In this document: in pieces, positions 27,132-32,625 of the stretch
How the letters are laid out: each line of letters begins with the position of its first letter
Position numbering within the stretch: the first letter of the stretch is position 1
Virus record (IMG/VR): IMGVR_UViG_2541047851_000007
DNA from: a virus
Lineage: Duplodnaviria; Heunggongvirae; Uroviricota; Caudoviricetes
Reading direction: 5' to 3' (one strand)
Length of the DNA: 41,096 bases
Made by a program: the position numbers and the translations under genes
The notes under the pieces: generated by a model
Databases searched by the model: none
Told to the model about the DNA's origin: nothing
Seen by the model: the letters and a program-made list of their open reading frames with translations, nothing else

Positions 27132-27193
27132 TACAGGTTTACTTGTAATTAACCCACAGGCACTCTTGTTTGTCAAATACAGATAGCTCTGTA
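27132..27193. promoter_or_regulatory. Tripartite operator region between cro and cI
   Basis: Three 16-bp sites spaced 23 bp: TACAGGTTTACTTGTA (27132-27147), CACAGGCACTCTTGTT (27155-27170), TACAGATAGCTCTGTA (27178-27193); overlaps TTGACA -35 for cro on minus strand. Confidence 0.6.
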
Positions 27194-27850: not shown

Positions 27851-27871
27851 TCGCATCTTCGCTTCAAACAA

Positions 27872-27895
27872 AGAGGGCTATGGCCCTCTTTTTTA
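27872..27895 (+). terminator. Intrinsic terminator after cI
   Basis: AGAGGGC-TATG-GCCCTCT followed by TTTTTT. Confidence 0.8.
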
Positions 27896-27936
27896 TTCCC
27901 TTAAAAACAAGTAATTAGGTTTTTAATGCAAATTTA

Positions 27937-27980
27937 TACAAGAATACCTGTTGACTTAATTACAGGTTTACTTGTACTTT
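27937..27980 (+). promoter_or_regulatory. Second operator pair with rightward promoter-like element
   Basis: TACAAGAATACCTGTT (27937-27952) and TACAGGTTTACTTGTA (27961-27976, identical to 27132-27147); TTGACT (27951-27956) - 18 bp - TACTTT. Confidence 0.5.
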
Positions 27981-27989
27981 TAATCCAAC

Positions 27990-28180
27990 GAAGTAATCGC
28001 TCTTTAACAAACAGAACCGCGTGACAGGTAAGCCGCAGTGCTCCTGGCAAAACGAAATAGCACCCGATGGGATCGAGGTAAGCGCCGAGTCCGTATGCGT
28101 ACGGTAAGCGTAGAGGACAACACCGCGATGAACTGATAAGTCACGCAAGTTGAAACGCCCCGATGATGGGGCGCTTAGTT
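27990..28180 (+). ncRNA. Candidate structured non-coding RNA / leader element
   Basis: No credible ORF; closing stem GCGTGAC (28019-28025) with GTCACGC (28140-28146); internal hairpin CCGTA-TGCG-TACGG (28090-28103); terminal hairpin CGCCCC-GATGAT-GGGGCG (28156-28173) then U-rich tail. Confidence 0.25.
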
Positions 28181-28224
28181 CCTTTAACTCTGGGTGACCG
28201 GAAGGGTACCCATGCTTAAAGAAA

Positions 28225-28794
28225 TTACTGGTTGTAAGGATCGTAATCCGTGATTGCCTTCCCCGGATTTTCATCTTCAGAAGGCAGTCGGGCCTCTAAA
28301 GCATTTCGGTTGAACAGATAGGAAGCCCTACAGTACGAACAAACCATATTAACGGCTCGCCCAAGGCCTGGCTTAGTAACCAGTCCTTCCGCTTGCAATA
28401 TAGATTTTCTCTTTTGCTCGTAGCAATTGGGACAAATATAAACCGGAGATTGGTCAGCATCTGCAGAAAGCTTGCTGCGATAGACCAGAGTCCCCCGCAT
28501 AGGCTGGTAAAGTTCATAGCTCGCCGCTTCAGCGGCCCAGTTCTCTTGCTTTACTTTCTCATTTTCCAGTTCAACAATTTTCTCCTTAGCCGCAATCAGC
28601 AGCTCCTGAAGCGACATTTGCTGCATCTGAACATCCATTAGCTTATCGAGTAAGATGTGCGTCTTCTCTTTAACTGCATAGTCTACAGTCAGATTCTGAA
28701 TCTCTCTTGCTGCTCCAACCGCGCTTTTAATTGCTCCTCCCACGCCGGATAACGATTCAGTTATCCGGGAAAGAATTCCTTTTTCTTCAGACAT
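28225..28794 (-). CDS. Coiled-coil / zinc-ribbon protein, unknown function (immunity-region moron)
   Basis: 189 aa; helical N-terminus; CPNC...x25...CSYC at C-terminus; convergent with cI, divergent from early operon; AT-rich. Confidence 0.55.
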   Translation of the reverse strand: MSEEKGILSRITESLSGVGGAIKSAVGAAREIQNLTVDYAVKEKTHILLDKLMDVQMQQMSLQELLIAAKEKIVELENEKVKQENWAAEAASYELYQPMRGTLVYRSKLSADADQSPVYICPNCYEQKRKSILQAEGLVTKPGLGRAVNMVCSYCRASYLFNRNALEARLPSEDENPGKAITDYDPYNQ

Positions 28795-28810
28795 ATCTAA
28801 TCTCTCTCAA

Positions 28811-28886
28811 ACTGTAGGGGTGAAGAGATATTAGACGATTTCTCACTGTAGGGGTACAAGGAGAACCACCTCGCCTGATGTGGTTA
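28811..28886. repeat. Direct repeats and inverted repeat upstream of zinc-ribbon gene
   Basis: ACTGTAGGGGT at 28811-28821 and 28845-28855, each preceded by TCTC; inverted repeat AACCAC-N10-GTGGTT at 28865-28886. Confidence 0.5.
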
Positions 28887-28933
28887 AAAGCAGGCACTCG
28901 ATGATATCCATGTAATTGCTGTGTGTAGTCTTT

Positions 28934-28960
28934 GCCCGCCGCAAGTGACGGGCTTTTTTA
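28934..28960 (+). terminator. Possible leader terminator/attenuator before early operon
   Basis: GCCCG-(10 nt)-CGGGC followed by TTTTTT; short stem, long loop. Confidence 0.35.
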
Positions 28961-28998
28961 TGTCTGAAAGCGCACTCGCAACAGCGCGCTCCCCGATA

Positions 28999-29167
28999 TG
29001 AAAAAAGGAATACAACCGATGAAACCTGAACACATCCATCGACTGACGGGGCGCGATGTTCTCCGTTATCGCCGTAAAAACTTCGATTTGATGACCGGTC
29101 TGGCCGTTGCCACTGCGCTCGGTCTGATCATCACTTTCATTCTCCTTGTAGCGAGGACCACAGTATG
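28999..29167 (+). CDS. Small single-pass membrane protein (first ORF of early operon)
   Basis: 56 aa read by eye ([56 protein letters not shown]); AAAGGAA RBS; stop overlaps next ATG. Confidence 0.35.
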
Positions 29168-31956: not shown

Positions 31957-32625
31957 GTGCTGGGGGATCTCATGAGGGAAAGAATAATGTCACAGCCCGT
32001 ATTAACTAATTACCTTAAAACTCAAATCATCAATAACGCACTTGAGAAAGCGGGTATCCCCAAACGTAAATCAGCACTACGAGCTGCTCGTGTTGAATGG
32101 GCCGAACGTGTTCGGCTTGCAGCTATCGGGGGCGTAGAGAAAGAAGCTGAAATATTAAAAAATATAAAAAAAATAGAAACACTGGTATCAAAATTCCCCG
32201 AAGCATTAAAAACCGCCAATAACATTATCAGGGAAGAGTGTTACATGTGTCTGAATCTGGCAGGTTCTCGGGTTACCGTCTATTTCAACGGTAACTACCG
32301 AGGATATGAATCAGGGTCACCAGACCATATTCACAAAATCGCGCCGGGGGAATTTACCCTTCTGGCAAATGACCCTCTAGTTACAGAGTTTTACGGGTTT
32401 GATACACTTTATGAGCAGATACAGAGCGATGAGTCAGACATTCGACAGAATGTCAGCGCTGCACTCAGTAAAGTGCGCACAGTTAAGCGCCTGCTGGAAG
32501 AGTGGCCTGAAGCTAAAGAACTTCTGCCAGCCGATGCACCATCTGCTCCGCTTCCGCCAGCTATACGACGCGAAACTCTCAACGAAATGATCGGCCTCCC
32601 TTCTGACGAAGGGGTAGATGCTTAA
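31957..32625 (+). CDS. Hypothetical early protein (likely start at 31987)
   Basis: 222 aa ORF; internal Met with RBS GAGGGAAAG. Confidence 0.45.
   Translation: MLGDLMRERIMSQPVLTNYLKTQIINNALEKAGIPKRKSALRAARVEWAERVRLAAIGGVEKEAEILKNIKKIETLVSKFPEALKTANNIIREECYMCLNLAGSRVTVYFNGNYRGYESGSPDHIHKIAPGEFTLLANDPLVTEFYGFDTLYEQIQSDESDIRQNVSAALSKVRTVKRLLEEWPEAKELLPADAPSAPLPPAIRRETLNEMIGLPSDEGVDA

Follow-up and report, generated by a model that had tools for sequence, protein, structure and literature searches.

The gene at positions 28225-28794 (minus strand) of the window, by which we mean the whole 41,096-nucleotide stretch of phage DNA analysed here, encodes a protein that is likely, given its sequence and predicted fold, to be a member of the Rip1 family with a Rip1-like role in defence. 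By analogy with characterized relatives, the best explanation of this gene, referred to here as rip1, is that its product acts on its own as an abortive-infection system and that the gene is a moron in a myovirus-type prophage of E. coli. The locus is real and, going by homology, both the protein and its regulatory module are of already known types (Rip1 and sieB/sas, respectively). An initial annotation had guessed that an exclusion or abortive-infection gene occupies this position, and the guess proves right because the protein belongs to the Rip1 family: it is a confident homologue, by sequence and by fold, of the characterized Rip1.

The window represents a ~41-kb myovirus-type prophage located between yfhH and yfhL, and 158 of 5426 complete E. 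coli genomes contain relatives of it. To the left of the immunity region are cro and genes for a VapE primase, Q, lysis, terminase, portal, head and tail functions. Rightward are genes encoding a 56-aa protein, a 300-aa protein, DUF2800 and DUF2815 proteins, Nmad5, a DNA polymerase, methylases and an integrase. No tRNA genes were found in the window, and a tape-measure-like gene called a pseudogene in a RefSeq relative is an intact 668-aa open reading frame (ORF) here. As annotated in RefSeq for an identical prophage, the part of the early operon at about 31957-32625 and downstream encodes an Nmad5-family putative nucleotide-modification protein, two methyltransferases and a SNF2-related protein. 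This set of genes hints at DNA modification by this phage.

The ORF described by the initial annotation is confirmed at 28225-28794 (minus strand), with an ATG start and a length of 189 aa. A Shine-Dalgarno-like GAGAGAG, read from the sequence, lies 7 nt 5' of the ATG (28802-28808, minus strand), and alignment indicates that this purine-rich stretch is also kept in HK446 and HK620. The gene is AT-rich as described, if only mildly so, with 46.3% GC vs 50.8% for the window. In the product, an amphipathic N-terminal helix rich in Gly and Ala is followed by a long helix and by a zinc-ribbon domain of the Cys4 type at the C-terminus. The helical N-terminus and the CPNC/CSYC ribbon proposed previously are both borne out: an AlphaFold2 model of moderate confidence (pLDDT 69.8) has helices spanning residues 3-34 and 39-90 and, after them, a C-terminal domain rich in beta structure, and the two cysteine motifs correspond to residues 121-124 (CPNC) and 152-155 (CSYC). 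Residues 7-39 are rich in Gly, Ala and Ser and have the highest helical hydrophobic moment in the protein (muH 0.39-0.44), and in the BLASTP alignment the N-terminal segment closely resembles the N-terminus of HK446 Rip1. Inspection of the sequence revealed no evident Esc-like internal start with a good ribosome-binding site within rip1.

Among PDB sequences the protein has a single strong match, chain L of entry 9oox, described as "ring interacting pore 1 (Rip1)" (phmmer E 3.5e-47), and a 14-member profile searched against the same sequences recovers 9oox at E 1e-66 with residues 3-166 aligned. A Foldseek comparison, named in the initial annotation as a way to check its reading, matches the AlphaFold2 model to chain M of 9oox (E 1.5e-10, TM-target 0.91, rmsd 2.0 Å, 128 columns), and no other PDB entry comes close in this search. 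In BLASTP, identity is 52% over 166 residues to HK446 gp37 (Rip1; E 6e-59) and 29% to HkaP of HK620 (E 4e-15). Across 43 diverse family members, aligned down to 21% identity, Y93, Y105, C121, C124, C152 and C155 are invariant and W86, L133 and Q134 nearly so; every family-invariant residue is present in the rip1 product. A profile search of 1.84 billion representatives identified 3406 Rip1 relatives at E<=1e-3. Searches of Pfam, NCBIfam and PADLOC 2023 with the rip1 product returned nothing, and the only match in PHROGs is phrog_1244, a family without a name. Homologues in Pseudomonas Mu-like phages share about 31-32% identity over residues 11-134 and are located at terminase genes. The Photorhabdus homologue adjoins terS, and the Yersinia homologue lies antisense directly 3' of N in the P_L operon.

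Entry 9oox is a cryo-EM structure of HK446 Rip1 bound to the T6 small terminase. Rip1 is described as a prophage protein that is harmless by itself and whose trigger comes late in infection (PMC13434031, a review of Patel et al., Nature 651:1060, 2026). In the complex, 12 Rip1 protomers surround an 11-mer terminase ring, which is contacted by the C-terminal half of the protein, while the N-terminal amphipathic helix builds the pore (PMC13434031). The same review reports that escape mutations affect the portal in Pseudomonas phages and the small terminase in E. coli phages, and that homologues are found mostly in proteobacterial prophages. If the window protein behaves as its family does (PDB 9oox title; PMC13434031), Rip1 would be present at a low, harmless level in the lysogen, and the ring-shaped small terminase or portal of a superinfecting phage, made late in infection, would act as the trigger. 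About 12 protomers would then dock round the ring via their C-terminal zinc-ribbon domains, the N-terminal amphipathic helices would form a pore in the inner membrane, and the cell would die or lyse ahead of progeny maturation. The triggers and phenotype are extrapolated here from a homologue 52% identical to the rip1 product.

Homology also assigns the region upstream of rip1, which is a P_sieB-type promoter opposite a sas-type antisense RNA. The ~100 bp 5' of the gene are 81-87% identical to the sequences preceding sieB in lambda and P22, and the same range applies to those preceding HK446 rip1 and HK620 hkaP; sieB-type upstream modules were found in 159 phage records. The -10 hexamer TAATAT (28828-28833, minus strand) aligns with TAAAAT in HK446 and HK620 and with TAAACT in lambda and P22. 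The -35 element TGTACC (28853-28858, minus strand) was assigned by homology to the annotated P22 P_sieB; the 'P sieB' annotation in the P22 record exactly covers TGTACC through the -10. The rip1 promoter has a poor -35 and a 19-20 bp spacer. By homology, these two elements would drive transcription of rip1.

The two direct repeats noted earlier in this region are exact copies of ACTGTAGGGGT at 28811-28821 and 28845-28855, 34 bp apart from start to start. With at most one mismatch, ACTGTAGGGGT has three matches in the window, where 0.38 are expected, and 0 of 100 shuffles gave as many as three. Copy 1 (28845-28855) overlaps the -35 region, and copy 2 (28811-28821), which reads ACCCCTACAGT on the rip1 strand, coincides with the predicted transcript start and 5'-UTR. 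Both copies, the inverted repeat discussed below and the spacing are invariant across the window phage, lambda, P22, HK446 and HK620. Further copies of the module were collected in two scans of viral contigs, and together the direct repeats fall into at least four sequence types, ACCCCTACAG, TTTCCACAGTCAAA, TCCCCAACAAC and TCCCCAATAGT. The two copies co-vary, because each repeat type occurs twice, 33-34 bp apart and in the same register. Modules of type 1 precede diverse cargo, and among 162 sampled modules these were genes for P22-type SieB (about 70), lambda-type SieB (26), Rip1-family proteins (28) and other small proteins (7). A third copy with one mismatch (ACTGTAGGGCT) lies inside rip1 at 28324-28334 (minus strand), across the CSYC codons. 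It is on the coding strand and is complementary to the 5'-UTR copy of the rip1 mRNA itself; its presence is probably due to chance.

In P22, sas was detected as a 127-nt antisense species in a 2026 RNA-seq study. The RNA given there begins across from the start codon of sieB, includes two copies of CUGUAGGGGU and extends about 20 nt beyond GAACCACCGAGCCUGACGUGGUUAAAAGACAGGC (PMC13397905). End-to-end alignment to this RNA places a putative homologue at 28780-28915 (plus strand) of the window, which begins across from the start codon of rip1, takes in both repeats and stops slightly beyond a pair of interleaved helices. Because of these two homologies, the ~110-bp control region is read as P_sieB on the rip1 strand, with a sas-type antisense RNA encoded opposite it. 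The antisense RNA contains two matches to the motif that the mRNA leader has once, and this would account for the co-variation of the repeats. The promoter scan called no sigma-70 promoter for the sas-like RNA in the first rip1 codons. Reviews describe sas as switching sieB translation and letting P22 bypass its own exclusion.

The inverted repeat AACCAC-N10-GTGGTT reported by the initial annotation is present at 28864-28885 and is unique in the window (0 expected). It corresponds to helix 1 (AACCAC/GTGGTT), for which the compensatory variants CCTC/GAGG, TCACG/CGTGA, CGGGA/TCCCG and ACACG/CGTGT were found. A second putative helix, GCCTG (28873-28877) with CAGGC (28891-28895), spans 28873-28895 and is interleaved with helix 1 in a pseudoknot topology. 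In 23 distinct sequences, 93.6% of cells are paired when both helices are considered. Helix 2 is 100% paired in this set, in which UA has changed to GC three times and three G.U pairs occur on the plus strand. Pairs changed on both sides number 4 in the 23 distinct sequences vs 1.2 ± 0.9 in shuffles. One compensatory example combines GCCGGG/CCCGGC with ACACG/CGTGT and comes from the locus of a 65%-identical homologue in the same phage type. Wobble G.U pairs number 8 on the plus strand vs 2 on the minus strand, and the loop lengths fit an H-type pseudoknot on the plus strand. Covariation gives moderate support to these predicted helices, with the sequences being related and the tested structure itself read from them. 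A simple hairpin formed by the inverted repeat on the rip1 strand was rejected (z -0.46), and the interleaved helices explain the repeat better.

The interleaved-helix element also occurs alone, at ~97% identity and without the sieB-type promoter, in the early-left operons of other phages (L012 1501-1533, L013 1501-1532 and 17 viral-contig loci). Small zinc-ribbon ORFs often come after this stand-alone element. Its occurrence suggests that the helix element has its own function on the early transcript.

The upstream repeats could be interpreted in other ways. The initial annotation had proposed a gel-shift test of CI and Cro on the repeats, and in that reading the direct and inverted repeats would be operators by which the phage's own CI or Cro controls rip1. 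The location of rip1 next to cI and the operator-like appearance of paired repeats bracketing the -10 lend this some appeal. However, the phage's own operator motif, ACAGGTTTACTTGTA, differs from the repeats, is found beside cI only and is absent from the rip1 upstream region. Moreover, the identical module occurs in the hetero-immune phages lambda, P22, HK446 and HK620, all with different immunities, and the cassette recurs at 98% identity in a hetero-immune relative that has a different repressor. Action of CI or Cro on the repeats is not supported by these comparisons, and we consider it very improbable. Another phage or host factor might instead repress or activate the promoter through the direct repeats as DNA sites with no function in RNA, in which case the paired co-variation at a constant spacing of 33-34 bp, or about three helical turns, and the position of the repeats, straddling the -35 and the transcript start, would find a ready explanation. 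Type-1 copies contain TACCCCT, matching the NarL/NarP heptamer TACYYMT (consensus as cited in PMC4886647), but types TTTCCACAGTCAAA, TCCCCAACAAC and TCCCCAATAGT do not match it, and NarL heptamers were rejected as a general account of the repeats. No candidate phage factor tracks the repeat type, type 1 precedes three unrelated cargos, and both copies are within the experimentally detected P22 sas RNA. Sites for such a factor are conceivable although on balance unlikely, and the P_sieB promoter with its opposing sas-type RNA is the reading retained here.

A related question is whether the protein itself could be a SieB-type exclusion protein or a nucleic-acid-binding zinc-ribbon regulator, and not a pore former. 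The sieB promoter, the sieB-like slot and the Cys4 ribbon are compatible with this, as is a short C-terminal likeness to lambda SieB. The rip1 product has a 24-residue C-terminal tail (residues 166-189; 28225-28296, minus strand) that ends in ITDYDPYNQ. HK446 Rip1 does not have the tail with its DYDPY motif, which homologues P0004 and P0011 do keep. The tail is similar to the end of lambda SieB (DYDPYN vs SYDPYN, within VASYDPYN), with a pairwise E of 0.002 over an 11/29-residue patch. Beyond this patch, however, there is no protein or DNA similarity to lambda or P22 SieB, the rip1 product is without a SieB-like hydrophobic segment, and the match to Rip1 is full-length whereas there are no matches to DNA-binding families. 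We therefore find either form of this alternative hardly credible and continue to treat the protein as a member of the Rip1 family. No DNA homology of the rip1 3' end to lambda sieB was found that would account for the tail, and the DYDPYN sequence may be a short linear motif or a coincidence.

A putative repressor-controlled early-right promoter with a boxA, the second promoter under repressor control, is located at 27937-28010 (plus strand), directly downstream of cI. Its TTGACT (27951-27956) is flanked by early-right operators at 27937-27951 and 27962-27976. The operator motif ACAGGTTTACTTGTA, which is found between cro and cI as well as around TTGACT, occurs at 27133 and 27962, with an inverted copy at 27937. 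The -10 of this promoter is weak (TACTTT), and the promoter was missed by the promoter scan. A perfect boxA, CGCTCTTTAACAA, follows at 27998-28010 (plus strand). In the hetero-immune phage, a strong promoter and an operator-like motif particular to that phage occupy the matching spot, and homology to the window resumes exactly at boxA. The promoter scan found no promoter-like sites from rip1 to the first early gene, an interval in which an intrinsic terminator is present. Because there is no promoter between rip1 and the early genes and there is an upstream promoter with a boxA, we infer an antiterminated early-right transcript that begins near 27985 and passes through rip1 in antisense. The initial annotation had described rip1 as divergent from the early operon. 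This is correct for orientation and goes no further, the gene being embedded antisense in that operon with the promoter upstream at 27951.

The leader after boxA is conserved and ~165 nt long, contains GGTAAGC three times and ends in a stable hairpin at 28156-28173. It looks like a nut-type antitermination leader; no N-like gene was found near it. When the 190-nt leader (27985-28173) is folded as one RNA, the result is not significant (z 0.22) and only the last hairpin stands out. This hairpin, CGCCCC-GATGAT-GGGGCG at 28156-28173, has a fold z-score of -3.8 and belongs to the phage backbone, being present in relatives without rip1. Because TTTCAACTT comes next on the minus strand, the hairpin is a candidate rip1 terminator.

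Upon induction, early-right transcription from the CI-controlled promoter at 27951 would cross rip1 antisense, and the same antisense transcription would be expected upon infection by a phage with the same module. This transcription, the sas-like RNA, or both could silence Rip1 synthesis and so spare the phage's own development. Our judgement on such antisense shut-off of Rip1 is about evenly balanced.

Downstream of the sas homologue, an RprA-like 3' domain with an intrinsic terminator is predicted at 28914-28963 (plus strand), with a stem formed by 28934-28938 and 28949-28953 and then a T-run. The element consists of AATTGCTGTGTGTAGTCTTTGCCC and the terminator hairpin, and it resembles the conserved 3' ~50 nt of host RprA, with a different stem sequence. 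Against Rfam RF00034 it scores 47.5 bits, under the gathering score of 70, with a convincing alignment for the 3' ~50 nt only; at gathering thresholds, Rfam identified nothing in the window. The element is an 82.6% match to the annotated rprA of 5421 E. coli genomes. The part of RprA that is matched is its functional processed form, the last 47 nt (PMC9262595). The RprA-like element is part of the phage backbone directly 5' of the first early gene, and relatives have it with or without rip1. A role as a phage-encoded mimic of RprA, or as a sponge for it, is possible.

A broader reading would make the module upstream of rip1 a general self/non-self switch for exclusion genes of prophages, in which one early-induced sas-type RNA running from 28780 to 28963 with an Hfq-type RprA-like end both silences Rip1 while the phage goes through its own lytic cycle and mimics processed RprA. 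Such an antisense RNA may carry two co-varying copies of a motif from the mRNA 5'-UTR together with a 3' pseudoknot, and the DYDPY tail may, as part of the same reading, retune which rings trigger the pore. We regard the switch as a whole as speculative and probably incorrect in this general form.

The gene and its promoter/sas module form an exchangeable, self-contained cassette of 732 bp (28174-28905) with a promoter of its own, and its flanks are kept in relatives with other cargo. Comparison with these relatives delimits the conserved flanks at 27851-28173 and 28906-29000. The full rip1 cassette is found in 49 of 5426 complete E. coli genomes. This interval, bounded by the leader and the RprA-like terminator, is a hotspot for cargo, and the alternative genes in it are all on the plus strand, the orientation of the early transcript. 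The alternatives are an unannotated small zinc-ribbon ORF, a 68-aa ORF, or a 68-aa ORF with an HNH endonuclease gene, in slots that were compared with 28174-28905 (L004 2855-3142, L005 2857-3111 and L006 2794-3048). The initial annotation had placed the gene in an immunity-proximal slot typical of such systems, and this agrees with the comparison to other phages, the topological slot being the same as that of HK446 rip1, HK620 hkaP and lambda and P22 sieB.

The closest characterized system is HK446 Rip1, with which the window locus shares 52% identity over residues 1-166, the predicted fold, the Cys4, Tyr and Trp invariants and the sequence of the N-terminal helix. The two also have in common the upstream promoter/sas module and a predicted antisense location in a repressor-controlled, antiterminated early operon. 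In contrast to HK446, the phage that carries the window gene is not lambdoid but a myovirus-type prophage that encodes a VapE primase and has a DUF2800/DUF2815/PolA replication module, and the window protein has the extra 24-aa C-terminal tail. Window rip1 also lacks an adjoining N gene, whereas HK446 rip1 lies antisense directly 3' of N in the P_L operon. HK620 HkaP, a 'putative superinfection exclusion protein', likewise belongs to the Rip1 family and has the identical module, the sieB slot and an antisense position after N, but it represents a distant subfamily (164 aa) without the C-terminal tail.

The Rip1 proteins of P. aeruginosa Mu-like prophages (D3112 orf25 / JBD30 / DMS3 type) are similar in being single prophage genes of the same family. 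However, their loci are at terminase genes and not in the immunity region, and their escape mutations map to the portal and not to the small terminase (PMC13434031). They also differ in being without the sieB-type promoter module. The SieB systems of lambda and P22 share with the window locus a promoter/antisense module of ~100 bp, which is homologous and includes both repeats and both helices, as well as the antisense orientation in an early operon and, by analogy, an abortive-exclusion role. Unlike these shared features, the proteins are unrelated, and P22 SieB has an internal Esc product with no counterpart evident in rip1. In contrast to the characterized examples, the antisense strand in the window continues into the RprA-like terminator.

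Together, these observations propose a function for a gene that is labelled 'hypothetical protein' in all 49 complete E. coli genomes with the full cassette. They also point to the Rip1 family having been mobilized, along with the old sieB promoter/sas module, into non-lambdoid phages. The antisense slot 3' of an early promoter that has a boxA and is under repressor control looks like a conserved site in which to seek exclusion genes, and the paired co-varying repeats and interleaved helices would provide handles on how such a gene is switched off during the phage's own growth.
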